A stretch of 64,000 nt of DNA from Patescibacteria group bacterium UBA6241 (GTDB taxonomy: Bacteria; Patescibacteriota; Minisyncoccia; Phycocordibacterales; Phycocordibacteraceae): contig DJWB01000001.1 in NCBI GenBank assembly GCA_002441425.1, forward strand, positions 15,087-79,086. Reading direction: 5' to 3'. Below the pieces are notes generated by a model. It had not been told where the DNA came from, searched no databases, and saw only the letters and a program-made list of their open reading frames with translations. Below are positions 1 through 64,000 of the stretch, one piece after another (within the stretch, counting starts at the first letter, position 1; the number at the start of each line of letters is the position of its first letter). The position numbers and the translations under genes are program-made.

Positions 1-626
1 TCAAGGGAACCGGGGTTTACCTGAAGGTGAACTCCGCCCTGAGAGCCTGCGGCTACGATCTCATCCGTGAGATCCAGTTGCGCGACTTGCGGGTCTTCGC
101 TGACCTCAAGCTGATTGACATCAGCGAGACGCTTTCCACGGACGGCGTTCTCTTGCGCGAGGCGAAGCCGGAGCTGCTCACCACCATGTGCGTCTCCGGT
201 GTCACTGCCATGCAGGCTCTGAAAGCTGAACTGCCGGACACGGAAGTGCTCGGCGTGACGGTGCTCACGAGCCTTGCGGACGCCGACACGCAGGCGATGT
301 TCACCTGCCAGACCGAGGAAGCCGTTATGCGGTTCGCCCAGGTCGCGGCAAACGCGAATATCGACGGCCTCATCTCGTCTCCCAAGGAGGTGGAGATGCT
401 TCGGGCAAAGTTTGGTCTCGTTCTGTCGCTCAACACGCCGGCCATCCGGCCGACGTGGGCGATCGTTCCGGGCGATGACCAAAATCCGGAGCGGATCATG
501 ACTCCGGAAAAGGCCATCAGGGCCGGAGCGGATCGCATCGTCGTGGGGCGTCCGATCGTGGGGGCTAAAAGCCCCTATGACGCGGTCATGCGCACCATTG
601 ATGAAATCGCCATGGCTACGTCGTAA
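1..626 (+). CDS. pyrF: orotidine 5'-phosphate decarboxylase, 5'-truncated at window edge (high-GC, GC3-rich codons)
   Basis: Frame is open from nt 3. Motifs DLKLIDI, VGRPI and the C-terminal region match OMP decarboxylase. The N-terminal ~45 aa lie outside the window. GC is far above the downstream DNA. Confidence 0.6.
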   Translation, partial: KGTGVYLKVNSALRACGYDLIREIQLRDLRVFADLKLIDISETLSTDGVLLREAKPELLTTMCVSGVTAMQALKAELPDTEVLGVTVLTSLADADTQAMFTCQTEEAVMRFAQVAANANIDGLISSPKEVEMLRAKFGLVLSLNTPAIRPTWAIVPGDDQNPERIMTPEKAIRAGADRIVVGRPIVGAKSPYDAVMRTIDEIAMATS

Positions 627-757
627 TCGGCGATATCCTTGCTTGCCAGCAGCCCCGTACTCAAAGAGTGCGTGGGCTGTTTTCCTTACTCTGCATTACA
701 AGCCAAAGGTCCATGCCATAATAAATACATACACATTGTACATAAGAGCAAACACCT

Positions 758-1234
758 ATGATTCCAAAAAACACCATTTGCCTCTGGTTTGATAAGGACG
801 CAGAAGAAGCAGCAAACTTTTACGCTGCTACCTTTCCTGATAGCAAAATATCTTCAGTCTTTAATGCGCCGAGCGACTTTCCGAGCGGGAAGAAGGGAGA
901 TGTCCTCACAGTGGAGTTTACTGTTTTTGGCATTCCATGTGTTGGCCTGAATGGAGGTCCAACCTTTAAGCAAAGCGAAGCATTCTCCTTTCAAATTGCA
1001 ACAGACACTCAGGAAGAAACAGACGAGTACTGGAATGCAATTGTTGGAAATGGAGGACAAGAGAGTGTGTGCGGATGGTGCAAGGATCGTTGGGGAGTAT
1101 CTTGGCAGATTACTCCTCGTACCCTCATTGAAGCACTTGCTGCAGGAGGAGCAGAAGCTGAGCGTGCCTTTAATGCCATGATGACCATGAAGAAGATTGA
1201 TGTTGCTGCTATTGATGCAGCACGAAAGGGATAA
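758..1234 (+). CDS. PhnB-like / 3-demethylubiquinone-9 3-methyltransferase-domain (VOC superfamily) protein
   Basis: 158 aa. Motifs ICLWFDKDAEEAANFY and C-terminal CGWCKDRWGVSWQI resemble the PhnB/YjdN family. Confidence 0.5.
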   Translation: MIPKNTICLWFDKDAEEAANFYAATFPDSKISSVFNAPSDFPSGKKGDVLTVEFTVFGIPCVGLNGGPTFKQSEAFSFQIATDTQEETDEYWNAIVGNGGQESVCGWCKDRWGVSWQITPRTLIEALAAGGAEAERAFNAMMTMKKIDVAAIDAARKG

Positions 1235-1241
1235 CTTACCT

Positions 1242-1850
1242 ATGAATCTCAGAAAGTTTTACATGGGCCGTGCAATAGGGTTTTTCATCCTTCTCGCTAT
1301 TGTCGGTCTGGTTGCTGCATTCTATTCATTTAATTCCTATATCTATAACGAGAAACAAGCACCTGCTGCAGCTGATTACAAAGATGCAGAATACAGAATT
1401 GATGGGACGCAAGTTCAGCTCAAAGACGGAGTAGCAGAGGTTGAAGCAGCACCCGGATCTGCTTCAAAGATAACGACTCGCTACTTTGGAAACGAGCACA
1501 AGACAGATATTAACGATGATGGGCGAGAGGATGTTGTCTTTTTGGTAACACAGGAGACCGGCGGAAGTGGGATTTTCTATTACGTAGTGGCAGCGCTCAA
1601 CACAGAACGTGGATACGTTGGTTCAGACGGGTATCTCTTAGGAGATAGAATTGCTCCTCAAACGATCAACGCAAGCCCGAATCCACGACATAAGAATGTT
1701 GTAGTCGCGAACTATGCCGATAGGGCTACTGGAGAGCCAATGACCGCACGACCTTCAGTTGGCAAAAGTGCATATTTGAAACTTGATGAGGCTAGCATGA
1801 TGTGGGGAATCGTTGAACCAGACTTTGAAGGGGAAAGTTCCGGTCTATAA
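1242..1850 (+). CDS. membrane-anchored hypothetical protein (N-terminal TM then extracytoplasmic domain)
   Basis: ATG at 1242 is in frame with ORF 1197..1850. One N-terminal TM is followed by the motif NSYIYNEKQ, which is also present in the 7953..8549 protein. Confidence 0.45.
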   Translation: MNLRKFYMGRAIGFFILLAIVGLVAAFYSFNSYIYNEKQAPAAADYKDAEYRIDGTQVQLKDGVAEVEAAPGSASKITTRYFGNEHKTDINDDGREDVVFLVTQETGGSGIFYYVVAALNTERGYVGSDGYLLGDRIAPQTINASPNPRHKNVVVANYADRATGEPMTARPSVGKSAYLKLDEASMMWGIVEPDFEGESSGL

Positions 1851-1887
1851 AACAAGGAAATAGCAGGGTAAAAGGGCAGATACGTCC

Positions 1888-1916
1888 TTGACACAACCCT
1901 ATATATGGTCTATTAT
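1888..1916 (+). promoter_or_regulatory. sigma70-like promoter TTGACA-N17-TATTAT
   Basis: TTGACA at 1888-1893, 17-nt spacer, TATTAT at 1911-1916. It points into the 2097..3233 gene. Confidence 0.4.
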
Positions 1917-1957
1917 AAGGAAAGAGATCTGGCCTTTGGCAATAGAAACTATCCATG

Positions 1958-2010
1958 TTCGGTTTCAGCTCTAAGTGGCTTACCTAAAGCATTTTAGAGC
2001 TGAAACCGAA
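1958..2010. repeat. 17-bp perfect inverted repeat (TTCGGTTTCAGCTCTAA ... TTAGAGCTGAAACCGAA) with a 19-nt loop, in the leader of the high-GC gene
   Basis: Arms at 1958-1974 and 1994-2010 are exact reverse complements. No U-tract follows on either strand, so it is not a classic intrinsic terminator. Confidence 0.7.
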
Positions 2011-2096
2011 TTCACCGATGGTGAGCGGCCAGCTGATACGCGTACACTGTATCGTGTTTTTCACTCACCATCATAAGAGAAATCTGGAGAGCTAAA

Positions 2097-3233
2097 ATGG
2101 TTAAAGAGACAAAGACCTTGGGCGAAAAGGTCCAGGAAGTCACGAACTGGTCCCTGGTGGACTGGTTGTCCGTGGTCTTCCCGCTGGTGTCGGCGTTCGC
2201 CACCTTCCACGGGGCGAACAAGCTGATCGGCAACAGCCTCTACGCCTTCGGCGTCGCAATCGTCGCCTTCTTCTTCATCGCGGCCTTCTATCGGTCGTAC
2301 CTGAAGTGGTATCCGTCGGCCAACGACAAGCAGAAGCGCAAGCTGCTGCTGCCGATGGTCGTCTTCGGCGTCTTCGCCATATGCCTGACCACACCGTTTT
2401 CGGTGGCCACCTTCGGTGGCGAGGTCGCGCTGCGCAAGGACTTCGAGCGGACGATCGCGACCGCAGAAGCGCGGACGAACCAGCGGATCGGCGACCTGAA
2501 CCGGGAGCTCGCGCTCTCGTCTTCGCTGGGCTCCTATGGTCGGCAATTCTCCGACCTGGCCCAGGCAGAAGCCGCCGGCTCCTTCACGGGCGTCAGCGGT
2601 CGCGGCGACGCGGCGGTCACCTTTGAGACGGTGGGCAGATCCCTGACGGCGATGAGCCGGCAGGTGGAAGCCAACCGTGCGGTCGTGGAGCGCCTGAAGG
2701 AGCAATCCAAGGCGATCATCCGCGACCTCCGCACCATCTCCTACCTGCGCGTCAGCCAGCAGGAGAAGGTCTCGCGGTTCGCCGCACGTCTGAACGATCT
2801 GAACGATCTGTTCGCCCAGATGGACGCCGCCTCAGTCCTGCCGTCGGTCGCGCAATCGGCCGGCAGCCTGGACATGGTCGCGAACCTGCGTTCGGGTGAG
2901 GCGGGCACGGACCTCGGTCAGCGCCAGTCGCAGACCATCGCCCGCGCCGGTGAGCTGGTGACCCGCGCACAGCAGGACATCAGCAAGACCACCGCCGACC
3001 TGACCAACCAGTCCGAGGAGCTGGCTCCGCTCGCCGTCATCGACGAGAGCGAGGCCATCTTCAAATACTGGCAGGTGATCATCTGGGCGTGGGCGGCCGC
3101 CATCGCTCTGGACTTCGCCCCGCTCCTGTTCCTGTTCATGCTCAGCCAATTCCACGGCATCGAGCGGACGCAGCGCCGGAGCGCGAAGAAGCCCAAGGAG
3201 GAGGACGGCAAGGTGACGCACCTGCGTCGCTAA
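2097..3233 (+). CDS. hypothetical membrane protein with a central coiled-coil region (3 N-terminal TMs, ~220-aa helical/coiled segment, C-terminal TM(s), basic tail), ~66% GC
   Basis: It is the longest ORF in a region where high GC opens ORFs in every frame. RBS GGAGAG lies 6 nt upstream, with promoter and terminator flanks. GC is ~20 points above its neighbours. Confidence 0.55.
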   Translation: MVKETKTLGEKVQEVTNWSLVDWLSVVFPLVSAFATFHGANKLIGNSLYAFGVAIVAFFFIAAFYRSYLKWYPSANDKQKRKLLLPMVVFGVFAICLTTPFSVATFGGEVALRKDFERTIATAEARTNQRIGDLNRELALSSSLGSYGRQFSDLAQAEAAGSFTGVSGRGDAAVTFETVGRSLTAMSRQVEANRAVVERLKEQSKAIIRDLRTISYLRVSQQEKVSRFAARLNDLNDLFAQMDAASVLPSVAQSAGSLDMVANLRSGEAGTDLGQRQSQTIARAGELVTRAQQDISKTTADLTNQSEELAPLAVIDESEAIFKYWQVIIWAWAAAIALDFAPLLFLFMLSQFHGIERTQRRSAKKPKEEDGKVTHLRR

Positions 3234-3280
3234 GTCGTCTCCTGCTCCTGTGAACGGATAGCTTCTAACGCCTACAAATG

Positions 3281-3316
3281 CCCCGGGGACCGAAAGGTTT
3301 CCGGGGTATTTCTTTT
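3281..3316 (+). terminator. rho-independent terminator (CCCCGGGGACC-GAAA-GGTTTCCGGGG + TATTTCTTTT)
   Basis: GC-rich hairpin followed by a T-rich tract immediately after the 2097..3233 stop codon. Confidence 0.55.
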
Positions 3317-21907: not shown

Positions 21908-23344
21908 GTGCTCAGCATTCTCAACATGGATACAAAGAAAGATACGCGTTCACGCGGCCCACGCCGTACGAACGCACCCCAGCGCTCTCGTTTTGGAGGA
22001 CGCGATACTAGAACTAACCCTGCATACGAGGCAGGCATGCGCTTTGCGCTTGAAAACGGCTTTAAGCGTCCTATGACCGCTGCTGTTGAACAGCGCCGTT
22101 CAAGTGGAGGCTCTCGTGGTACTGGCCCTCGCCGCTCAAGTGGTGGACGCCCAGAACGCGGAACTGGCTCACGCCCAGAACGCTCTGGAAGTGCTCGCCC
22201 TGCACGTGGTGGAGGTCGTGGATACCAGGAGATGGCAGTAGACCTCTCAAAGCTCGTGAACAAAGCTCAGCCAGCTGAGGAGGTGGAGGCATATGCATCA
22301 ACACATGCATTCGCAGACTTTGCTATTGATGAACGCCTTAAGGCGAACATTGCGAGCAAGGGATACATAACCCCTACTCCAATTCAGGATCAGTCAATCC
22401 CACACGTACTTCTTGGAAAGGACGTAGTTGGTATTGCAAACACAGGAACAGGAAAGACTGCAGCATTCCTTATCCCCCTTATTGATAAAGTACTTAAGTT
22501 CCGTGCACTAGGAAATGATGAGCGTGTGCTCGTTATGGTACCTACACGTGAGCTTGCGATTCAGATTGAGTCTGAGTTCTTTGGCTTTGCTAAGGGACTT
22601 GGTCTTGCGTCTGTAACCTGCGTTGGTGGAGCAAACATTGTTCCCCAGATTCGTGTACTCAAGCGAAACCCAGCATTTGTAATTGGAACTCCAGGACGTC
22701 TTAAGGACCTTATGGAGCGCCGTGATCTAGACCTCACACACTTCGGAACTGTTGTGCTTGATGAGGCAGATCGCATGCTAGACATGGGATTCATTGATGA
22801 CATGCGCTTTATCCTAAGCAAGATGCGCAGCGAGCGTCACACACTCTTCTTCTCCGCAACAATGTCTCGCGACATTCAGGCACTCATTGGTGCTTTCCTA
22901 AAGGATCCTATAGCAGTGTCTGTTAAGACCCGTGAGACATCACACACAATTGATCAGGACGTAGTGAAAGTGCATCACTCACAGAAGTTTGATCGTTTGG
23001 TTGAGCTCTTGAAGGAGCCAGAGTTTGAAAAGACTCTCGTCTTTGGACGTACCAAGCATGGTGTTGAGCGCATGGCGAAAGACTTGCGACAGCAGGGCAT
23101 TCGCGCTGACTCTATTCACGGAAACAAGACACACAGCGCTCGCCAAAAGGCTCTCATTGCCTTCAAGCGTAACGATGTTCGTGTTCTTGTAGCAACTGAT
23201 GTTGCTGCACGTGGTCTAGACATCTCTGGTGTAACACACGTGATTAACTACGACCTCCCGTCTACGTACGAGGACTATACACACCGTATTGGCCGTACAG
23301 GACGCGCAGGAACTACTGGAAAGGCACTTACCTTCATTCCGTAA
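21908..23344 (+). CDS. DEAD-box ATP-dependent RNA helicase with Arg/Gly-rich N-terminal extension
   Basis: Q-motif region, AxTGTGKT, PTRELA, DEAD (VLDEADRMLDMGF), SAT, HRIGRTGR. N-terminal ~120 aa low-complexity R/G/S. Exact start uncertain. Confidence 0.8.
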   Translation: MLSILNMDTKKDTRSRGPRRTNAPQRSRFGGRDTRTNPAYEAGMRFALENGFKRPMTAAVEQRRSSGGSRGTGPRRSSGGRPERGTGSRPERSGSARPARGGGRGYQEMAVDLSKLVNKAQPAEEVEAYASTHAFADFAIDERLKANIASKGYITPTPIQDQSIPHVLLGKDVVGIANTGTGKTAAFLIPLIDKVLKFRALGNDERVLVMVPTRELAIQIESEFFGFAKGLGLASVTCVGGANIVPQIRVLKRNPAFVIGTPGRLKDLMERRDLDLTHFGTVVLDEADRMLDMGFIDDMRFILSKMRSERHTLFFSATMSRDIQALIGAFLKDPIAVSVKTRETSHTIDQDVVKVHHSQKFDRLVELLKEPEFEKTLVFGRTKHGVERMAKDLRQQGIRADSIHGNKTHSARQKALIAFKRNDVRVLVATDVAARGLDISGVTHVINYDLPSTYEDYTHRIGRTGRAGTTGKALTFIP

Positions 23345-32609: not shown

Positions 32610-34541
32610 CTAAACTCCGATGAGAACAGGAATAACCATAGGCGCCTTGTTGGTTCTCGTGAAGAGATATCCGGCCATGGTGTCTGAGAGTGCGTTCTTT
32701 ACGTAATCCAGATCAACCGGGTTCATACCTTCAGTTGAATCCTCAACCGTCTTCTTAATCAAAAGACGAGCCTGGTTAAGCATTTCCTGATTCTCACGAA
32801 GATATACGAATCCGCGAGAGATAATATCTGGAGACTTGCGAAGCTTTCCTGTCTTAAGGTTAACGGTTGCGATGATAACAAACATACCGTCCTTGGCGAG
32901 CATCTGGCGGTCACGAATAACCACCTCCTGCAGGTCGCCAATAGAGAATCCGTCCACTACAAGTGGTGCTGAAGGCACCTTCTGCTTGTGGTAGTTAAGC
33001 TTCTCTCCACCTTCCTCAATATCAATAACCATACCGTTATCGGCAAGGATGATTGATTCGCGAGGGCGTCCTGCTTGCTCAACTGCACGCGCATGACTTG
33101 CAGTCATTGAGTAGTAGCCGTAGGCAGGCATGAAGTACTTAGCGCCAACTTGCTGGTTAATCCAAATCAGCTCGCCAGTGTTTCCGTGTCCTGTTGAGTG
33201 CACGTCACTTGAGCGGTAGTGAATGAGGGTTACACCGTTGCGGTACAAGTTGTCCTTTAGCTTCTGCACTGAGATTTCGTTCCCAGGAATAACAGAAGAG
33301 GAAAGCACGATAGTATCGCGGTTGTTCAGCACAATGCTTTTGTGCTGCTTGGTTGCAATACGCATAAGCGCAGCAAACTCTTCTCCCTGAGCTCCGGTTG
33401 AGAGAATAACAATTTTGTCTGGAGGATAATCTCCAATCTCCTGAGAGCTGATGATCGTGTCCTTCTTAACAGTAAGAAGTCCTGTCTTCTGTGCAATCTC
33501 AAGGTTGGTCTTAATAGATCGTCCTTCAGTGATTACTTTCTTTCCTAGTGACTCAGAGATCTCAATGATGCGTACCATGCGCTCAAACTGAGACGCGAAG
33601 GTTCCGATAATGAGTCGCCCCTTAACGGTACGAATAATCTCTTCAAGAGTCTCATGCACTTTGCGCTCAGGCACTGAGAATCCGTCACGTTCAGCGTTAG
33701 TTGAGTCTGCAATGAAGAGCAAGTTCTTTTGCTTTCCAAGTGCTCCCCATTTCTTTGCTTCAGTTTCGGTTGGAATACCGTTCTCATGGTCAAGCTTAAG
33801 GTCTCCTGTTGCAATAACGTTTCCGTATGGTGTCTCAATCGCAATACCCATTGAGTCTGGGATTGAGTGTGTAACCGGGAAGAACTGCACTTTTGTGGAG
33901 CCAATAGTCATGGTTGATCCAGGCTCAACAGTCACAATATTTAGTTCTGGTTGATCAGGATATTCTTCCTGTCGCTTCTTGATCATCACTGCAGAAAGGT
34001 TCTGCGTGTAGATGGTCGGATTACCCATACGATTCATAAGGAAGGGAATACCTCCAATATGGTCTAGGTGTCCGTGTGTGATGAATACTCCGCGAATGCG
34101 GTCTTGGTTCATCTCAAGGTAGCGGGTGTTTGGAAGGACGTAATCAACGCCAGGAGAGGTGTCCTCAGACACAAACTGGAATCCAACGTCAAAGACAAAG
34201 ATGTCGCCATTGGTTTCAATGGTGAACATGTTGCGTCCAACCTCTTCAACTCCTCCAAGAGGAACAACACGGACCACGTCCTTTCCAGGAGCCTCAGGGA
34301 AGTAATCCGGAGCCTTCTTAACAGGAGCAGGATGATTCCCGGTCTGTGGACCGCCTGGGCGGCGCATAGTGCGCTTGGCTGGTCGTCCGCTGCGAGGAGC
34401 CCCTCCTTCTTTTCCTCGTGTACGAGGACGTTGAGGGCGGGCACCATCAGTGCGTCCCTCTGTGCGAGGAGCGGCACTTGGTGCAGAGTGCGCTGCGCGG
34501 CCGTGTGGGGCAGGCGCCGGCGCTGGTGCGGGTGCTGACAT
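32610..34541 (-). CDS. rnj: ribonuclease J (beta-CASP metallo-beta-lactamase RNase) with Ala/Pro/Arg-rich N-terminal extension
   Basis: HGHLDHIGG motif, beta-CASP motifs, C-terminal domain. The N-terminal ~100 aa are low-complexity. Confidence 0.8.
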   Translation of the reverse strand: MSAPAPAPAPAPHGRAAHSAPSAAPRTEGRTDGARPQRPRTRGKEGGAPRSGRPAKRTMRRPGGPQTGNHPAPVKKAPDYFPEAPGKDVVRVVPLGGVEEVGRNMFTIETNGDIFVFDVGFQFVSEDTSPGVDYVLPNTRYLEMNQDRIRGVFITHGHLDHIGGIPFLMNRMGNPTIYTQNLSAVMIKKRQEEYPDQPELNIVTVEPGSTMTIGSTKVQFFPVTHSIPDSMGIAIETPYGNVIATGDLKLDHENGIPTETEAKKWGALGKQKNLLFIADSTNAERDGFSVPERKVHETLEEIIRTVKGRLIIGTFASQFERMVRIIEISESLGKKVITEGRSIKTNLEIAQKTGLLTVKKDTIISSQEIGDYPPDKIVILSTGAQGEEFAALMRIATKQHKSIVLNNRDTIVLSSSVIPGNEISVQKLKDNLYRNGVTLIHYRSSDVHSTGHGNTGELIWINQQVGAKYFMPAYGYYSMTASHARAVEQAGRPRESIILADNGMVIDIEEGGEKLNYHKQKVPSAPLVVDGFSIGDLQEVVIRDRQMLAKDGMFVIIATVNLKTGKLRKSPDIISRGFVYLRENQEMLNQARLLIKKTVEDSTEGMNPVDLDYVKNALSDTMAGYLFTRTNKAPMVIPVLIGV

Positions 34542-40954: not shown

Positions 40955-41041
40955 GGAGGCGTCGCATAGTGGTCTAGTGCACCGCCTTGGAAAGGCGGCA
41001 GGCCTGAAAGGGTCTCGAGAGTTCGAATCTCTCCGCCTCCG
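40955..41041 (+). tRNA. tRNA-Ser (anticodon GGA)
   Basis: Manual fold: 7-bp acceptor GGAGGCG/CGCCTCC, anticodon loop TTGGAAA, long variable arm, T-loop GTTCGAATC. CCA not encoded. Confidence 0.75.
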
Positions 41042-41090
41042 CACTAAAAACCTGTTATCGGCAGACCCGAGTGCCTGATATAATGGTCAT

Positions 41091-43715: not shown

Positions 43716-44050
43716 ATGGACCGGTCCAGACGGTTGCTCTTGCGTGTTTACACGCTGGAGAGGAAAGTCCGAACACAGGCAGCATCTGCTGCAGACAGGT
43801 AGCGGGTAACGCCCGTCCGCCGAAAGGCGCGAGGTGCGAACAGAAACGCTCAATTCCGAAAGGATAGAGACTCTTTCAAAGAGTGTCCTGAAGGCGACTT
43901 CAGGCTGAAACGGCTAAATCCTTACCCCTGTGCAAGGCCGTGCCCGTCATTGTGCGGGAGCGCCGCTTGAGGGTGTTGGTAACAACACTCCCAGATAGAT
44001 AACCATCCTCTTCTTTGAAGGGACAGAATTCGGCTTATCGGACCGGTATC
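43716..44050 (+). ncRNA. rnpB: RNase P RNA (bacterial type, reduced ~335 nt)
   Basis: GGAAAGTCCG (P4 5' strand), GGTAACGCCCG, ACAGAAACGCTC and the 3' ACAGAATTCGGCTTATCGGACCGG, which pairs with the 5' GGACCGGTCC. Boundaries are approximate. Confidence 0.65.
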
Positions 44051-44177
44051 CATCATTCGTGCAAAACCCGCCCTAACCGGCGGGTTTTGCCTATGTATGT
44101 CCCCACCTTTATAGAGGGGTGCTCATGCGTGCGCGGTATACTGAGGATATTACCAGGGCCGTTTTTAATTATATCTA

Positions 44178-51380: not shown

Positions 51381-51452
51381 CCCCTCGTAGCTCAATGGAT
51401 AGAGCATCTCACTCCTAACGAGACGATGTAGGTCCGATTCCTGCCGAGGGGA
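51381..51452 (+). tRNA. tRNA-Arg (anticodon CCT)
   Basis: Manual fold: acceptor CCCCTCG/CGAGGGG, D-arm GCTC/GAGC, anticodon loop CTCCTAA, 4-nt variable loop, T-loop TCCGATT. No encoded CCA. Confidence 0.65.
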
Positions 51453-51498
51453 CAAATGAAAAGACCGCCTTTTTTTGGGGCGGTCGGAGAAGATGTCG

Positions 51499-51642
51499 TT
51501 ACTTCTCTTCCGGTCTCAGGTCGCCATTGCGACCCTCCAAAAGAGCGTCCACGACGTCTCGTTGCGCTTCCGGATCCTGGACAGGTTCCGGAGCAGGCGG
51601 CGGCGAAGGTTCTCGCGGTCCGTCAAACACAGGTTCAGTCAC
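51499..51642 (-). CDS. GC-rich micro-ORF, GTG-initiated 47-aa Pro/Glu-rich peptide (VTEPVFDGPREPSPPPAPEP...). A diverged copy is at 56817..56945
   Basis: I translated it codon by codon by hand. SD-like GAGGGA 11 nt upstream. DNA-level similarity to 56817..56945 (GTGAC..GACGGACC..ACCTTCsyCsCCsCC). The plus-strand ORFs in the table at 51456-51768 appear to be GC artefacts. Confidence 0.3.
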   Translation of the reverse strand: MTEPVFDGPREPSPPPAPEPVQDPEAQRDVVDALLEGRNGDLRPEEK

Positions 51643-51749
51643 TTTGTTTCAGCTCCCTCGTGCATACTTCGCATCCCGAGTGGACACGAAGAATATAGTT
51701 TTAGCCAAAATGGTATTTTTGTAAACCCCGATGCTATACTTTCTTATAT

Positions 51750-52081: not shown

Positions 52082-52157
52082 GCTTGGGTAGCTCAGTTGG
52101 TAGAGCATTCGCCTGAAGAGCGAAGGGTCACCGGTTCGACCCCGGTCCCAAGCACCA
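52082..52157 (+). tRNA. tRNA-Phe (anticodon GAA), CCA encoded
   Basis: 76-nt cloverleaf GCTTGGG...anticodon loop CTGAAGA...GGTTCGACC...CCCAAGC-A-CCA. Confidence 0.85.
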
Positions 52158-53267: not shown

Positions 53268-53298
53268 GAAAAGACCCGCGATGTGCGGGTCTTTTCTT
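53268..53298. terminator. bidirectional terminator (AGAAAAGACCCGCG-ATGT-GCGGGTCTTTTCT)
   Basis: Perfect hairpin flanked by A- and T-runs, between convergent genes. Confidence 0.65.
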
Positions 53299-53803
53299 AT
53301 CCTGCCTTAACGCGCAGCTTTGTTTGCCTTGCCTTATCTAGCTTCGGAAGAATGATGGAGAGCAACCCGTCCTTAGCTCCTGCAGAAGAGTTGTCTACAT
53401 CAACTTCTTGGGGAAGGAGAATAGTTCGTGAGAAAGATCCCCAGAATAGTTCGCGGGTGAAGTAGTCTGAATCAAGTACCGAGTCTCGCTCGTCTCGTGA
53501 GCCCTCAATAACAACCATATCGCGGCTTATAGATACATTGAGCTCGTCTGGGCGCACCCCTGCTACGAATGCGCGAATGACGATCTCATTAGGAGTCTGA
53601 TACACATCAACTGGAAGCTGACCCTCGCTGTGCTCTTCTTCAACAGTTGAAAGAATACTGCGAGAAGGCAGGTCTGAAGAGACAGCAGTGCGCACAGGTG
53701 CTTGCATGCCTGACTGCATTGGCAAGTCGTCATCAAAGCCATCGTACTGGTCATCCATAGGAGCGGAGCCAGAGAGTCTATCGAAGAATGATCGTTTTTT
53801 CAT
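53297..53803 (-). CDS. Hsp20/alpha-crystallin family small heat-shock protein
   Basis: Alpha-crystallin domain motifs (VDVYQTPNEIVIRAFVAGVRPDEL..., GLLSIILPK). Confidence 0.75.
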   Translation of the reverse strand: MKKRSFFDRLSGSAPMDDQYDGFDDDLPMQSGMQAPVRTAVSSDLPSRSILSTVEEEHSEGQLPVDVYQTPNEIVIRAFVAGVRPDELNVSISRDMVVIEGSRDERDSVLDSDYFTRELFWGSFSRTILLPQEVDVDNSSAGAKDGLLSIILPKLDKARQTKLRVKAG

Positions 53804-54524: not shown

Positions 54525-56708
54525 TTATTCTACACTGCCCGTACCCGGCCAAGGACTAATCATGAGGAAAGGAGCCTCTGGCTTAAGAGACTTCCATATT
54601 TCTTCTGTAACAAACGGCATAAATGGGTGAAGTCCTGCGAGTACGTCTGAAAGCAGACTATGCAGAAGCGCTTTGCGGGAAGCGTGTGCTTTCGCATCGT
54701 CTGAAGCAAACACCTGCTTAGAGTCTTCAATAAGCTCGTCAGCGAGACGATGCCATGCATAGTGATATAGCTTTTCAGCTACAAGGTGTATACGGTAGTT
54801 CTCAAAATCGTTAGTTACATCTTTAAGAATCTCGTCCAATTCAACGCCTAGCGCGCGATCTGCAACCGTTAGTTCAGCGGTGAGGTCAGCACCTTCGGTT
54901 TCTGAGAGAATATATCTCGCAATATTCCAAAGCTTGTTCGCAAAGTTCTTGTATCCCTTAACTTTGTTCTCATCAAAGCGGACATCGCTTCCTACTGCAG
55001 CACCAACTAAAAGACCCATGCGAAGTGCATCAGCTCCAAAGCGGTCTATCATGTCTATAGGATCAATACCGTTTCCAAGTGACTTGCTAAACTTCTGTCC
55101 CTTAGAATCGCGCACGAGTCCGTGGATCAACACGGTCTTGAAAGGTACTTGTCCCAAATGAAATCCACTCATAAGAATCATGCGAGACACCCATAGCGGA
55201 AGAATCTCATACGCAGGAGACATAAATGAGGTTGGATGGAATGTACGTAGGTCTCTCGTATCTTCTGGCCAGCCAAGTGTTGAGAACGTCCAAAGCGCAG
55301 AGGAGAACCACGTATCAAGTACATCGGGGTCTTGAGTCCAACCATCTCCCTCGGGTGCAGTCTCCTGGCATACAATTTCATCTCCTCGGTACCACACTGG
55401 AATACGGTGCCCAAACCAAATCTGTCTGCTGATGCACCAGTCATGAAGATTGGTTATCCAGTGCTGGTATATTTTCTTAAAGTTTTCCTGAGGCATTGAA
55501 ACCTGCCCGCTTTCAACTGCCGCGCGCATAACTTCTTTCAAAGTAACGGTATCTCCGGTGGTAATACCTGGAATCTCAGAGTGGGGAATTGCAAAAGGTG
55601 TATTAACACCAACAAACCATTGCAACTTTGGAAGAGGCTCAATAATACCTCCGGTGCGCTCAGCAGTAGAAACATTCTGGGAGATGCTCTCCTCTGAGAC
55701 CATAAGTCCCTCTTCTCGCAGCCACGCGGCAACTGCCTCTCGTGCGTCGTTAACCTTAAGCCCAGACACACGACCCTCTGCAGTCATCTTCGCGTACTCA
55801 TTAATAACTATGCGGTCCTTAGGAAGATTGTGTCGCTCTGCAATATCCCAGTCTATTTGGCTGTGTGCAGGAGTAACGCCAAGCGCTCCAGTTCCAAATT
55901 CAGGATCAACTTCTGTATCTGCAACTATGCGTATTGAAAGAGGGATATCGCAAAACATAACTTCGTATGTCTTGCCAACGAACTCTTTGTACCTAGGATC
56001 GTCAGGGTGTACCGCAACAGCTACGTCGCCAACTTTTGTTTCAAGGCGTGTGGTCGCAACAGGAATAGGGAAATCCTTGCTGTACTTAAATGTGTAGAGA
56101 GTTGCAGTTCGCTCTTCATGCACAATCTCATCATCTGAAATTGTTGTCTGACCCTTTGGGTCCCAGTTAACGATACGGTTGCCGCGATATATAAGTCCTG
56201 CATCGTACATGCGTTTGAATGCAGTAAAGACAGCTTTGTTGCGGGTATCGTCTAGGGTGTATGCGTACCGAGACCAATCAAGAGAGGCGCCCATACGACG
56301 TACCTGAGAAAGAATGGTTGCCTCGCTTGCTTTTGCGAACTCCCCAACACGACGAACTAACTCCTCACGCCCGATATCATGTCTGCTCTTACCCTCTTCC
56401 TTCTGTATATTCTTTTCAACTCGTGCCTGCGTTGCAATTGCTGCTGAGTCAGTGCCTGGAATCCAAAGCGCTTTCTTTCCGCGCATGCGGTTAAAGCGGA
56501 TTACACTATCCTGCAACGAATCCTCGTACGCGTGCCCGAGATGCAGCACTCCAGTTACATTCGGGGGAGGGAGCACAATAGTAAAAGGCTCCTTTGAATC
56601 TGCATCCGGTAGATTGTCCGGATTAAAATATCCACTCTCTTCCCATTCAGTATATATACGCGCTTCTGTTGCGCTTGCGTCATAGGGCTTTAAAAACTTC
56701 TCGTCCAT
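54525..56708 (-). CDS. valS: valine--tRNA ligase
   Basis: HLGH (PNVTGVLHLGHA) and KFSKS (KMSKS) motifs, editing domain. Start taken at MDEKFLKPYD. Lacks a long C-terminal coiled coil. Confidence 0.9.
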   Translation of the reverse strand: MDEKFLKPYDASATEARIYTEWEESGYFNPDNLPDADSKEPFTIVLPPPNVTGVLHLGHAYEDSLQDSVIRFNRMRGKKALWIPGTDSAAIATQARVEKNIQKEEGKSRHDIGREELVRRVGEFAKASEATILSQVRRMGASLDWSRYAYTLDDTRNKAVFTAFKRMYDAGLIYRGNRIVNWDPKGQTTISDDEIVHEERTATLYTFKYSKDFPIPVATTRLETKVGDVAVAVHPDDPRYKEFVGKTYEVMFCDIPLSIRIVADTEVDPEFGTGALGVTPAHSQIDWDIAERHNLPKDRIVINEYAKMTAEGRVSGLKVNDAREAVAAWLREEGLMVSEESISQNVSTAERTGGIIEPLPKLQWFVGVNTPFAIPHSEIPGITTGDTVTLKEVMRAAVESGQVSMPQENFKKIYQHWITNLHDWCISRQIWFGHRIPVWYRGDEIVCQETAPEGDGWTQDPDVLDTWFSSALWTFSTLGWPEDTRDLRTFHPTSFMSPAYEILPLWVSRMILMSGFHLGQVPFKTVLIHGLVRDSKGQKFSKSLGNGIDPIDMIDRFGADALRMGLLVGAAVGSDVRFDENKVKGYKNFANKLWNIARYILSETEGADLTAELTVADRALGVELDEILKDVTNDFENYRIHLVAEKLYHYAWHRLADELIEDSKQVFASDDAKAHASRKALLHSLLSDVLAGLHPFMPFVTEEIWKSLKPEAPFLMISPWPGTGSVE

Positions 56709-56816
56709 TACGTTTGAATATAACAAATAAGCGCTTGAAAGGCTTCTCTTGTAGACATTGATTGATGAGTAGTTTTGTGTTACTATTTACGTACACACTC
56801 TTGAAAGGAGGTGCTT

Positions 56817-56945
56817 GTGACGCAGACCCCCCAGGATCAATACGACGGACCCATGGAGGACCTTCCTCCGCCCCAAGGGCCGCCTTCCAATGAAAAGGGG
56901 CACGAGCAACCCTCACCCGAGGGAGGCTCACACTACGGTGAGTAA
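56817..56945 (+). CDS. GC-rich micro-ORF, GTG-initiated 42-aa Pro/Glu-rich peptide (VTQTPQDQYDGPMEDLPPPQGPP...). A diverged copy is at 51499..51642
   Basis: Near-consensus SD AAGGAGG 5 nt upstream of GTG 56817. ~62% GC in an otherwise AT-richer intergenic region between valS and tsaD. Shares DGPxExxPPP and nucleotide blocks with the 51499..51642 copy. Confidence 0.35.
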   Translation: MTQTPQDQYDGPMEDLPPPQGPPSNEKGHEQPSPEGGSHYGE

Positions 56946-56979
56946 GATCTTTCCGCCCGCGTCAACTGATGCGGGTTTT

Positions 56980-58155
56980 TCATACCAACGATAGGTTTCC
57001 GTCAGCAGATAAAGACGCAGGATCTGAATACTTACCTTGAAGCGCACGATAGTATCCTGCGATTCCTATCATAATTGCATTGTCTGTTGTGAACATCGGA
57101 GCAGGAATACGCAGTTCAACCTCTGGGTGCTCTTGTGCGCACTTTTCTGTGAATACGCGTTGAATATTTGTGTTTGCTGAAACACCTCCTCCAAGTACGA
57201 GTGTCTGCGCATTTGTTTGGAGGAGCGCTCTGGAAGTTTTTGCAAAAAGCACATCAGCAACTGCATCTTCAAACTCTCTTGCGAGACCCTTCTTCTCAGA
57301 TTCAGAAAGCTCCGGGTGTGCCTTTAGGAAATACAGAACTGAAGTCTTGAGACCGGAGAAGGAGAAGTCTGTATGCGGGTCATGAATCATGGGACGGGGA
57401 AGGGTAACAGGAGCTTGGATATCTTCAGCTCTCGCTGCCTCTGCGAGACGCGATACCTCAGGTCCGCCTGGATAGGGTAGCGAAAGCATACGCGCTACTT
57501 TGTCGTATGCTTCTCCAACAGCATCGTCTCGTGTATGCCCAATCAATTCATATGAGAGCCAATCACGCATAGAAATAAGTTCCGTGTGTCCTCCAGAAAT
57601 AAGAAGTGCGAGCACAGGCAATTGAAGCTCTGAGATTACAAACTCTTCTCCCTCCGTACGCACCAGTCCAGACAAGAGATGTCCTTCCATGTGATTCACC
57701 CCGATAACAGGAATATCCCACAGTATAGAAAGAGCACGTGCGAAATTAACTCCAACCCATAGTGCAGGCGCAAGGCCAGGACCATGCGTAACTGCTATAG
57801 CGTCAACCAAAGGCTTGGCTGTGGTTTCAAGAAATGCAGTGAGCGCAGCGTTTAGCTCTGGTTCGCGAACAAGAAGTTCAGAGAGTTCTGCTTTCTGGTC
57901 CTCTGACAAAGTATTTGCATGAGACTCTAGGAGTCCTGCCTGAGAAAGTGCTTCGTGTAGAAGCGGCACAAGATTCTTTGCATGTTCTCTTTTAGCAAGT
58001 GCGGGGAATACCCCTCCGTATTCGCGGTGTATATCTACTTGAGACAAAAGTGCATTCCCAAGAATACGAAAACGCGCTGAATCTACTGATCCTTCAGCGT
58101 TAAGTATTGAGACCGCAGTCTCGTCACAAGATGTTTCAATCGAGAGGAGCTTCAT
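56980..58155 (-). CDS. tsaD: tRNA N6-adenosine threonylcarbamoyltransferase TsaD (Kae1/YgjD family)
   Basis: MKLLSIETSCDETAVSIL N-terminus, metal-binding HxxGH (VNHMEGH), C-terminal Gly-rich motifs. Start overlaps the upstream DHH gene end by 20 nt. Confidence 0.8.
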   Translation of the reverse strand: MKLLSIETSCDETAVSILNAEGSVDSARFRILGNALLSQVDIHREYGGVFPALAKREHAKNLVPLLHEALSQAGLLESHANTLSEDQKAELSELLVREPELNAALTAFLETTAKPLVDAIAVTHGPGLAPALWVGVNFARALSILWDIPVIGVNHMEGHLLSGLVRTEGEEFVISELQLPVLALLISGGHTELISMRDWLSYELIGHTRDDAVGEAYDKVARMLSLPYPGGPEVSRLAEAARAEDIQAPVTLPRPMIHDPHTDFSFSGLKTSVLYFLKAHPELSESEKKGLAREFEDAVADVLFAKTSRALLQTNAQTLVLGGGVSANTNIQRVFTEKCAQEHPEVELRIPAPMFTTDNAIMIGIAGYYRALQGKYSDPASLSADGNLSLV

Positions 58156-63034: not shown

Positions 63035-63072
63035 ATCCCTGAAGATTTAGTTCAGGGATGTACTGTGTGGGG

Positions 63073-63145
63073 TGGGCGATACAGGATTCGAACCTGTGAC
63101 CCTCTCAACGTCAATGAGATGCTCTACCAACTGAGCTAACCGCCC
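63073..63145 (-). tRNA. tRNA-Val (anticodon GAC)
   Basis: Reverse complement gives GGGCGGT-TA-GCTCAGTTGGTAGAGC-A-TCTCA-TTGACGT-TGAGA-GGGTC-ACAGG-TTCGAAT-CCTGT-ATCGCCC-A. Confidence 0.8.
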
Positions 63146-63189: not shown

Positions 63190-63810
63190 ATGGAACAGGT
63201 ATCACTCACGCCGCAAACACAAGAATCTCTTATACAAAAGGCAGTTGAAGTTCTCTCACAAGGAGAGATTCTCCTGTACCCAACAGATACCGTGTACGGA
63301 CTTGGTGTTGATGCTACGGACGAAGATGCTATAGCAGCACTTAGGGATTTAAAGGGAAGAGATGAGAAGAAGCCTATTCTCATTATGCTCCCTTCAGTTG
63401 AGTCTATTGAAGACTATGCAGAAATGAATGAGGAAGCGTACCGGTTGGCGGAAGCATTTCTCCCAGGACCCCTAACACTTGTACTCCCTGCAAAGAAGTC
63501 TGTGTCCTATTCAGTTACGTTCAACAGAACTGTTGGTATACGAATTCCAAACGATCCGTTTTGTCTTGCGCTCTCAGCTGCGTTTGGGAAACCTATAACA
63601 ACAACGAGTGCAAACAGAAGTGGAATGGATCCAAAAGATACGGTGCCTGAGATTCTTTCTCAGTTTGGATTCCATGCTGAGTCCATAAGCCTTGCAATAG
63701 ATGCAGGTGCGAAAGGAAAGTCGCAGCCTTCAACTATTGTTTCAATAACAGACAGTGGCACCACCGTACTTCGCGAGGGAGCGCTCTCAAGAGAAGTCCT
63801 GGGACTATAG
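63190..63810 (+). CDS. tsaC: L-threonylcarbamoyladenylate synthase (TsaC/YrdC family)
   Basis: LLYPTDTVYGLGVDATDEDA...TTSANRSG, characteristic YrdC motifs. 206 aa. Confidence 0.8.
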   Translation: MEQVSLTPQTQESLIQKAVEVLSQGEILLYPTDTVYGLGVDATDEDAIAALRDLKGRDEKKPILIMLPSVESIEDYAEMNEEAYRLAEAFLPGPLTLVLPAKKSVSYSVTFNRTVGIRIPNDPFCLALSAAFGKPITTTSANRSGMDPKDTVPEILSQFGFHAESISLAIDAGAKGKSQPSTIVSITDSGTTVLREGALSREVLGL

Positions 63811-63865
63811 AAAGAAGCCCCGGGGTGTAAGTCCGAGGCTTGTGTTGTTTGTTGGTCGCCCTGAT

Positions 63866-64000
63866 TTAGGCGGCCGGGTTGCAGGTGGCGCCGGAGACGG
63901 TGAATTCCAGGGCGTCTCCGCCGGTCACCTGGCAGGCCCAGCGACGGCCGTCGTCCAGGCGGACGATGTAGCTCGTCGCGCTGCCCATGCCGTGCTTGGT
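63866..64000 (-). CDS. partial high-GC ORF (C-terminal 44 aa ...YIVRLDDGRRWACQVTGGDALEFTVSGATCNPAA), gene continues beyond the window
   Basis: I translated the minus strand by hand. The stop complement TTA is at 63866-63868. GC is >65% after the ~47% tsaC region. Confidence 0.3.
   Translation of the reverse strand, partial: TKHGMGSATSYIVRLDDGRRWACQVTGGDALEFTVSGATCNPAA

Follow-up and report, generated by a model that had tools for sequence, protein, structure and literature searches.

A Shine-Dalgarno-led small gene between valS and tsaD of a Paceibacteria clade, predicted to encode an acidic, proline-rich microprotein

Introduction

Most bacterial microproteins (50 amino acids or fewer) that have been characterized are hydrophobic membrane helices. 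Patescibacteria have tiny genomes with many genes of unassigned function, and their small open reading frames (ORFs) are mostly unannotated. Here, we describe p1, an ORF at positions 56817-56945 (plus strand) of a 64-kb stretch of DNA from Patescibacteria group bacterium UBA6241 (contig DJWB01000001.1), which we call the window, together with a second small element, p2 (51499-51642, minus strand). p1 lies between valS and tsaD and is a previously undescribed, fast-evolving, acidic and proline-rich microprotein gene whose product belongs to the class of bacterial microproteins. Two further described systems come close to it. In Flavobacteriia, rpsU, the gene of ribosomal protein bS21, is reportedly a rare gene that bears a Shine-Dalgarno (SD) sequence in an SD-poor genome, with the SD being used for autoregulation. 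As with rpsU, p1 is a single small gene whose SD is perfect and conserved amid SD-less genes. The modifiers Pup and UBact are small, acidic and disordered proteins of about 60 to 70 amino acids with a conserved C-terminal Gly-Glu, against which the product of p1 is short (42 amino acids).

Results

The 42-codon frame of p1 runs from a GTG start to a TAA stop, and its translation (VTQTPQDQYDGPMEDLPPPQGPPSNEKGHEQPSPEGGSHYGE) is exactly the one quoted in a preliminary description made from the letters of the window; the segments MTQTPQDQYDGPMEDLPPPQGPPSNEK and GHEQPSPEGGSHYGE are candidate marker peptides of the predicted product. At this place an open frame could by itself have arisen by chance, because the DNA is GC-rich and three further ORFs of 40 to 83 amino acids overlap p1 on both strands. 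It is the comparative evidence that lifts p1 above chance. We compared 80 valS loci from GTDB species representatives and found extra loci via homologues of PrsW. Four distinct orthologues were obtained: those of the window, of the near strain L095 (VTQPTQDQHDGPMEDLPPPQGPPSQEKGHEQPSPEGGSHYGE), of L002 (valS identity, 92%; VTQAPEQPFDGPMEDLPPPDLPRTQEVQEHPPNAVNGSHHGE) and of L016 (valS identity, 88%; VTHRTEEPFDGPMEDLPPPDLPPAMERSSVGIPSQTSEGSQHGE), the last being identical in L092 and L093. All four share the SD, the GTG start, the frame, the stop position, the terminator and a plausible promoter, and their lengths differ in frame only (42 versus 44 amino acids).

The substitutions were distributed as in a coding sequence. 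Among the window, L002 and L016, the first, second and third codon positions were variable in 18, 14 and 36 of 42 codons, respectively. Between these three species the proportion of synonymous differences (pS) was saturated at 0.72 to 0.83, while that of nonsynonymous differences (pN) was about 0.3; pN/pS was 0.18 for the window and L002 and 0.40 for the window and the L016 lineage. The near-strain pair of the window and L095 gave a pS of 0.25, a pN of 0.05 and a ratio of 0.21, and a hand-calculated Fisher test on the counts of this pair gave about 0.004. In the same pair the ratios of tsaD, prsW and hsp20 were 0.00 to 0.06, and the pN of p1 was about 10 times that of the neighbouring genes. 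Third positions and the C-terminal half were the most diverged parts at the nucleotide level, with the frame kept, while the antisense and shifted frames contained stops or were open in differing frames between species. The preliminary description had named a conserved nucleotide patch with an unconserved frame as the pattern that would speak for an RNA or DNA element; in the related genomes the opposite was seen, with the frame kept while the nucleotides diverged. From this pattern of substitution we conclude that p1 codes for a protein and that the selection acting on it, although relaxed, is purifying.

Restriction to one small clade, a pN about 10 times that of the neighbours and atypical codon usage are also what might be expected of a young ORF, possibly de novo or recently acquired, which would have little or no function and persist because the clade is young and stop codons are few in GC-rich DNA, and the valS-tsaD junction is a hotspot of lineage-specific orphan ORFs. 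However, the start, frame, stop, SD and 10-residue core of p1 are intact although synonymous sites are saturated, pN/pS is well under 1 even in the near-strain pair, and alternative frames are not preserved. We regard this account as improbable. p1 has been annotated as a gene by JGI (P0001) in one metagenome only, and its orthologues in three NCBI metagenome-assembled genomes (MAGs) are uncalled.

The surroundings of p1 agree with the preliminary description. p1 is on the plus strand between two minus-strand genes, valS (54525-56708; NCBIfam valS equivalog, 860 bits against a cut-off of 704) and tsaD (56980-58155; TsaD equivalog match), and the valS-tsaD spacer, earlier put at 250 bp, measures 271 nucleotides (nt). 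The contrast in GC content is also there: p1 has 63% GC versus 48% for the window, and its GC content at third codon positions (GC3) is 0.67 versus 0.42 for the genome. The SD, AAGGAGGTG (56805-56813, plus strand), is a 9-nt match to the complement of the canonical anti-SD; it includes the AAGGAGG reported earlier (56805-56811), and the gap from GGAGG to the GTG is 5 nt. At this site GAAAGGAGG is unchanged in the window, L095, L002 and L016, a conservation that suggests action via the canonical anti-SD.

Upstream of the SD, a putative -35 hexamer, TTGATT (56758-56763, plus strand), is invariant in the window, L002 and L016 and is followed at a distance of 16 to 17 nt by a putative extended -10 element, TGT-TACTAT (56778-56786, plus strand). 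In the -10 region TTGTGTT is invariant, and the hexamer is TACTAT, TTAAAT or TACAAT across the three species. The promoter assignment (TTGATT, 16 to 17 nt, TGT-TAnnAT) is a tentative one drawn from the letters and would place the transcription start near 56793, giving a 5' untranslated region of about 23 nt; the -35 hexamer scores under the promoter-scan threshold of 9/12, and the consensus scan did not list the promoter. To the left, the p1 cassette is bounded by an extended -10 box of valS, TGTTATATT (56717-56725, minus strand), which ends 8 nt before the valS ATG (56708). From the position of this box, the valS mRNA is predicted to be leaderless or nearly so, and the reverse complement of the box, ATAACAAATA, does not vary among the window, L002 and L016. 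Two copies of a 9-nt direct repeat, CTTGAAAGG, stand on either side of the divergent promoter region (56734-56742 and 56800-56808), with the second copy entering the SD; a shorter TGAAAGG/AAAGG pair is also present in L002 and L016, and the CTTGAAAGG repeat may be due to chance.

Downstream, p1 has a predicted intrinsic terminator (56955-56981, plus strand) with a 9-bp stem, a 4-nt loop and TTTTT. The hairpin (56955-56976) starts 9 nt past the stop of p1, and the terminator adjoins the tsaD stop codon (56980-56982, minus strand). In L002 and L016, base pairs of the stem have changed on one side, from G-C to G-U or from G-U to A-U, with the stem retained, and both the stop-to-hairpin spacing (8 to 10 nt) and the spacer sequence ATCTTTCC are conserved. 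Since the terminator comes after the stop codon and the next gene, tsaD, is convergent, a regulatory leader peptide, as proposed in the preliminary description, is unlikely. These same signals bear on the idea of a translational sensor, in which PPP(D/Q) would stall ribosomes when elongation factor P (EF-P) or prolyl-tRNA is low and so set termination versus antisense read-through into tsaD. An invariant PPP core, a strong SD and the conserved spacing and sequence between stop and hairpin would suit such a sensor, but there is no co-directional gene downstream, no antiterminator pairing is predicted, the conservation of N- and C-terminal residues would be unneeded, and the counterpart of p1 in a sister lineage (loci L087 and L088, described below) is without PPP. 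The sensor is thus very unlikely in our estimation.

The strength of the ribosome-binding site had been called unusual, and this was borne out because the rest of the genome region is without SD sites. The genes surveyed for such sites were 63 calls around the window, from loci L001, L082 and L086, and a list of 65 starts adds p1 and p2. No 5-mer SD was found in any of the 63 neighbouring genes, so that p1 was the only such case among 64 starts in about 60 kb, and a 4-mer SD at -17 to -5 was found in 2 of the 63 compared with 6 in a control region. ATG was the start codon in 58 of the 65 listed starts, whereas p1 starts with GTG. TANNNT boxes peaked at -14 to -12 (22 of 63 genes versus a background of about 1 per position), and T was preferred at -1 (35 of 63). 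Because the TANNNT peak is close to the start codon, many of the neighbouring genes look leaderless, and from these signals the region appears to be SD-free and largely leaderless. An SD-dependent p1 among SD-less neighbours would imply either that p1 is translated under a separate regime or that its product is in high demand.

A perfect 15-nt palindrome, GGAGGA-CCT-TCCTCC (56855-56869, plus strand), lies inside p1 at codons 13 to 18 and is predicted to form an RNA hairpin, with one arm SD-like and the other anti-SD-like. It occurs once in the window and was found only at p1 loci. Four of the five codons from E14 to P18 are identical in the window, L002 and L016, the only difference being in D15, whose third base is in the loop. 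In the same three species none of nine other conserved residues keeps an identical codon. A hand-calculated Fisher test of the frozen codons against the others gave about 0.005, and the chance of four identical codons was estimated from codon usage at about 3e-4, assuming independent species. To judge from these codons, the mRNA or DNA of p1 is also constrained at the palindrome and, because of this constraint at the nucleotide level, the mRNA probably carries a functional hairpin. Taken with the contrast between SD and leaderless starts, the frozen palindrome is a hint of a translation-level role for p1.

Two explanations can be built on the palindrome. In one, the role of p1 is mainly at the level of RNA or transcription: a structured transcript of about 190 nt, antisense in orientation between tsaD and valS, would act as a small RNA or as a dual-function RNA with a CCUCC/GGAGG hairpin, the ORF being secondary, or else convergent transcription and the terminator would insulate valS from tsaD read-through. 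The frozen synonymous sites of GGAGGAyCUUCCUCC, where the sites of other conserved residues vary, argue for this, as do the elevated GC3 and a folding of the transcript that is better than that of shuffles (z = -2.9). Additionally, the counterparts in L087/L088 retain the SD, the orientation and the terminator and not the peptide sequence, and the ORFs inserted at this junction run antisense to tsaD and valS in nearly every case. Against it, the 18/14/36 codon pattern and a pN/pS of about 0.2 reflect selection on the amino acid sequence. RNAalifold found no unbroken helix on p1 beyond the palindrome and the terminator, with an unfavourable covariation term (+1.78), and no Rfam family was matched. 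A search of p1 and p2 against Rfam 15 (E up to 10) gave nothing at gathering score, the best being a 17.7-bit terminator-like match, plus noise. A helix masking the SD that was predicted in the window mRNA was rejected, as it is not conserved in the orthologues. In either of its forms, we consider this explanation unlikely.

In the other, suggested by analogy with rpsU, the p1 cassette might be a translation-mode sensor that reports or titrates ribosomes with a free anti-SD, with the peptide largely incidental. The GGAGGA/UCCUCC hairpin would then be an SD/anti-SD mimic, and the 9-nt SD would be the point of the locus. p1 differs from rpsU in that it does not encode a ribosomal protein and in that the SD-poverty of its surroundings seems to be tied to leaderless promoters and not to sequestration of the anti-SD. 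Both the sensor itself and the role it would give to the hairpin and the SD strike us as rather unlikely.

The codons for DGPMEDLPPP (56844-56873, plus strand) specify the same 10 residues in all four orthologues, with synonymous changes at D10, G11, P12, D15 and P19. In total, the invariant residues are M1, T2, D10-P19, P22, E26, G37, S38, G41 and E42. The peptide has a net charge of about -7 and 10 prolines among its 42 residues. An AlphaFold2 model of the single sequence had a predicted local distance difference test score (pLDDT) of 64 and a predicted template modelling score (pTM) of 0.16, with almost no secondary structure, so that the model fits an intrinsically disordered peptide, as does the acidic, proline-rich composition; this was one of the readings offered in the preliminary description. 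Another, a small secreted protein, is unsupported because the sequence of p1 contains no hydrophobic segment or signal peptide.

The searches for relatives of this peptide were negative. Only the identical JGI call P0001 was returned by a word-indexed search of 5.8 billion proteins, by an exhaustive search of 1.84 billion representatives and by a search of the 5.8-billion-protein collection with an alignment of p1 and p2. Two metagenome scans with the core, one with a degenerate peptide and one with degenerate DNA, gave no match, and there was none in IMG/VR, the INPHARED phages or the PLSDB plasmids. Ten members of the family searched against Pfam and NCBIfam at E values up to 10 yielded only a subthreshold match to XRN1_DBM, the XRN1 DCP1-binding motif (PF18245), which was seen with L002 only (E = 0.04; 14.3 bits, where the cut-off is 27) and is not membership. 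A match to the beta-gamma-crystallin motif of protein S in a PDB profile search (E = 0.72) was rejected because p1 is without the hydrophobic core residues. In the literature we found nothing pertinent on UBact in Parcubacteria, on small proteins in Patescibacteria or on leaderless translation in the Candidate Phyla Radiation (CPR).

The C terminus raises the question of a Pup/UBact-like modifier that would be ligated to lysines through its terminal Gly-Glu. An acidic composition and predicted disorder would suit such a modifier, as would the G-E that is invariant in the four orthologues, all of which end in Y/H-G-E and not in GG[QE]. No Pfam or NCBIfam match was obtained even at E values up to 10, however, and the predicted structure has no C-terminal half that forms helices. 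No Pup-ligase, Dop, Mpa or proteasome gene is among the genes with Pfam annotation in the 64-kb window, and the positional counterparts in L087/L088 end in DDFYS. A modifier of this kind is extremely unlikely.

A resemblance was also noted to the neighbouring Hsp20 (53297-53803, minus strand). Its disordered N-terminal extension has two motifs that are conserved over about 75 Paceibacteria orthologues, KKRSFF[DE]RL[ST]G and the acidic [DE]Dx[YF]Dx[FY][DE]D[DE]; the likeness of the latter to the p1 core is confined to the peptide. When the p1 stretch DQYDGPMEDLPPPQG is set against DQYDGFDDDLPMQSG of Hsp20, which holds the acidic motif DDxYDxFDDDLP, 9 of 15 positions are alike, and p1 has Pro where the motif has its conserved Phe. 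Corresponding to DQY of the window p1 are EQPF and EEPF in L002 and L016 and DQH in L095. An origin of p1 as a duplicate of the 5' end of hsp20 was rejected, as no more than 24 of 45 DNA positions agree and DQY is peculiar to the window strain.

The best GTDB matches to the window valS are MAGs named Patescibacteria, Parcubacteria or Paceibacteria, and the sequence of the window is also present on a 608-kb ENA contig (ERZ27315056 k141_820366). The gene order tsaD-valS-prsW-hsp20 is general among these bacteria, and in 39 of 76 related loci tsaD and valS are no more than 100 nt apart, which identifies the p1 cassette as a clade-specific insertion; p1 itself was detected only in the small Paceibacteria clade of the window. 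In 36 of the 76 loci the spacer exceeds 200 nt and has lineage-specific ORFs. The inserts of other lineages encode 50 to 1600 amino acids and are nearly always antisense to tsaD and valS, and SD-like motifs were present in 12 of 22. Seven that were compared are mutually unrelated, none of them is similar to p1, and 9 of 10 scanned had no Pfam domain. The nearest sister lineage, L087/L088 (PrsW identity, 87%), has at this site an SD-led (AGAAGGAGGTG), terminator-bearing ORF for an acidic, proline-rich peptide of 48 to 50 amino acids. BLAST and hhalign gave no similarity between p1 and the same-site ORFs of L087, L088, L090 and L034, and the DNA aligns only at the SD. The L087/L088 ORF may be a diverged orthologue of p1 or an independent insertion.

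A junction that attracts unrelated ORFs of 50 to 1600 amino acids, together with a GC content and GC3 above the genome average, could also mean that p1 is the coding remnant of a mobile element, as the preliminary description had suggested, or of a larger gene once inserted there. The evidence is otherwise contrary. At the p1 site there are no inverted or terminal repeats and no direct repeats beyond a 9-mer, p1 is single-copy within the window, and there is no phage, plasmid or IMG/VR match. p1 has no similarity to the larger inserts, and its expression signals are complete and conserved. We give this origin next to no probability.

In relatives, SD-led ORFs for single-pass hydrophobic peptides of 33 to 47 amino acids (for example, MPGIIPAWIGVGVPSALILVALIACKLHKLFRK) were observed about 2.3 kb upstream of valS (L006 3492-3617, L009 3638-3739, L010 3745-3849, L012 3671-3814 and L007 1038-1175). 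They may represent another unannotated small-protein family.

p2, which the preliminary description took for a paralog of p1, encodes 47 amino acids (VTEPVFDGPREPSPPPAPEPVQDPEAQRDVVDALLEGRNGDLRPEEK) and has orthologues in L002, L016, L087 and L089 with an invariant MTE.V...L.GRNG, placed at the start and near the end. Its variable codon positions are distributed as 17/19/34 of 45, with a dN/dS (ratio of nonsynonymous to synonymous substitution rates) of about 0.2; judged by this pattern, p2 is a separate, real and conserved small gene. A GAGGGAG is located 13 to 16 nt from its start, too far for a canonical SD. The JGI call at this locus is a plus-strand ORF of 80 amino acids (51456-51698) whose frame is interrupted in L002 and L016, and the existing annotation is thus probably on the wrong strand. 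The p2 terminator adjoins the 3' end of tRNA-Arg.

As regards paralogy, a weak similarity to p1 did stand, with 8 of 15 residues shared (tblastn within the window, E = 0.02), while the relationship itself was not established. Reciprocal hidden Markov model matches had E values of 1.5 and 2.9 among 31,056 ORFs, hhalign gave P = 0.0018 and a probability of 15%, and the p2 orthologues of L087/L089 and L002 do not have the FDGP..PPP that p1 and p2 share. The two are partly alike, being acidic and proline-rich with a GTG start in the window, their own terminator and an orientation antisense to the flanking genes. On these comparisons, paralogy of p1 and p2 is possible.

Elsewhere in the window, positions 1-3300 form a GC-rich block (60 to 73% GC) in which the ORFs at 27-626 (at the 5' end of the window) and 2097-3233 (a 378-amino-acid orphan) have a GC3 of 0.79 and 0.89, respectively, compared with 0.42 for the genome; by its composition, this block looks like recently acquired foreign DNA. 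Two low-complexity extensions were also observed. RNase J has an Ala/Pro/Arg-rich N-terminal extension of about 80 amino acids (34264-34541, minus strand; MSAPAPAPAPAPHGRAAH...) with up to 75% GC, and a DEAD-box helicase has an RG-rich N-terminal extension of about 110 amino acids (21908-22260, plus strand). In both the high GC content comes from codon positions 1 and 2, and GC3 is normal. The last 190 bases of the window (63809-64000), right after a Sua5/YrdC-like gene (63190-63810), reach 74% GC with no obvious long ORF completed within the window. Rfam matches at gathering score over the whole window were only tRNAs and RNase P: the class A RNase P RNA (43718-44053, plus strand, 130 bits), tRNA-Ser(GGA), tRNA-Arg(CCT) and tRNA-Phe(GAA) on the plus strand (40955-41042, 51381-51453 and 52082-52157, respectively) and tRNA-Val(GAC) on the minus strand (63071-63145).

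Discussion

The interpretation that we favour, and consider reasonably probable, is that p1 encodes a disordered, acidic microprotein, expressed on its own and translated from its SD, that binds a partner through the invariant DGPMEDLPPP core as a linear motif. The cassette of about 230 bp, between tsaD and valS and on the strand opposite to theirs, comprises a putative promoter, a leader of 23 nt in which the SD is perfect, a GTG ORF and an intrinsic terminator. The ORF would be translated by an SD-dependent route, unlike the 63 neighbouring genes, to give a product of 42 to 44 amino acids in a narrow Paceibacteria (Patescibacteria/CPR) clade. The N-terminal MT, the DGPMEDLPPP core and the C-terminal GS..GE are the only constant parts of this product, with the remainder evolving about 10 times faster than the neighbouring housekeeping proteins, still under purifying selection. 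The acidic polyproline core would be a free short linear motif (SLiM) that docks onto a partner protein and modulates it. Within this interpretation, the comparisons establish p1 as a gene, and we infer the binding through DGPMEDLPPP; the binding mechanism is conjectural because the searches gave no homologue, domain or partner.

Several points weigh against this interpretation. The case for p1 is made from sequence, with only four distinct orthologues from a single narrow clade and statistics on about 42 codons, and its dN/dS is flattered by the protein-guided codon alignment of the divergent C-terminal half. A GC3 of 0.67 versus 0.42, together with the frozen palindrome, suggests constraints other than those on the protein. 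An SD-led acidic ORF with no detectable similarity to p1 is present at the same site in L087/L088, and the sequence of the peptide may therefore matter little. Finally, the protein, Pfam, NCBIfam and PDB searches returned no homologue, domain or partner.

The immediate impact of p1 is small, because it is an orphan gene in an uncultured lineage. It does illustrate that a comparison of the few closest genomes can suffice to validate a gene of 42 codons. It also reveals a sharp contrast of initiation signals in one genome, between SD-less, often leaderless-looking core genes and an SD-led accessory small ORF. If this contrast holds genome-wide, it would provide a simple handle for accessory or recently acquired genes, and the use of the anti-SD by the ribosomes of these bacteria could be asked about directly.

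Among known systems, the proline-rich SLiMs bound by EVH1, SH3 and WW domains (and motifs such as PF18245) are like the p1 core in that L-P-P-P comes after an acidic residue. They belong to eukaryotes, and for p1 no reader domain of this kind is known; the likeness is a resemblance only. The closer comparison is with the microproteins encoded by small ORFs of bacteria. p1 differs from the typical members of this class in having no described family and in its product, which is soluble, strongly acidic (net charge of about -7), rich in proline and, by prediction, disordered. In other respects it is like them: it has its own promoter, ribosome-binding site and terminator, encodes about 40 amino acids, is poorly annotated and is restricted to one lineage and, as is presumed for these microproteins, its product would act by binding a larger protein.

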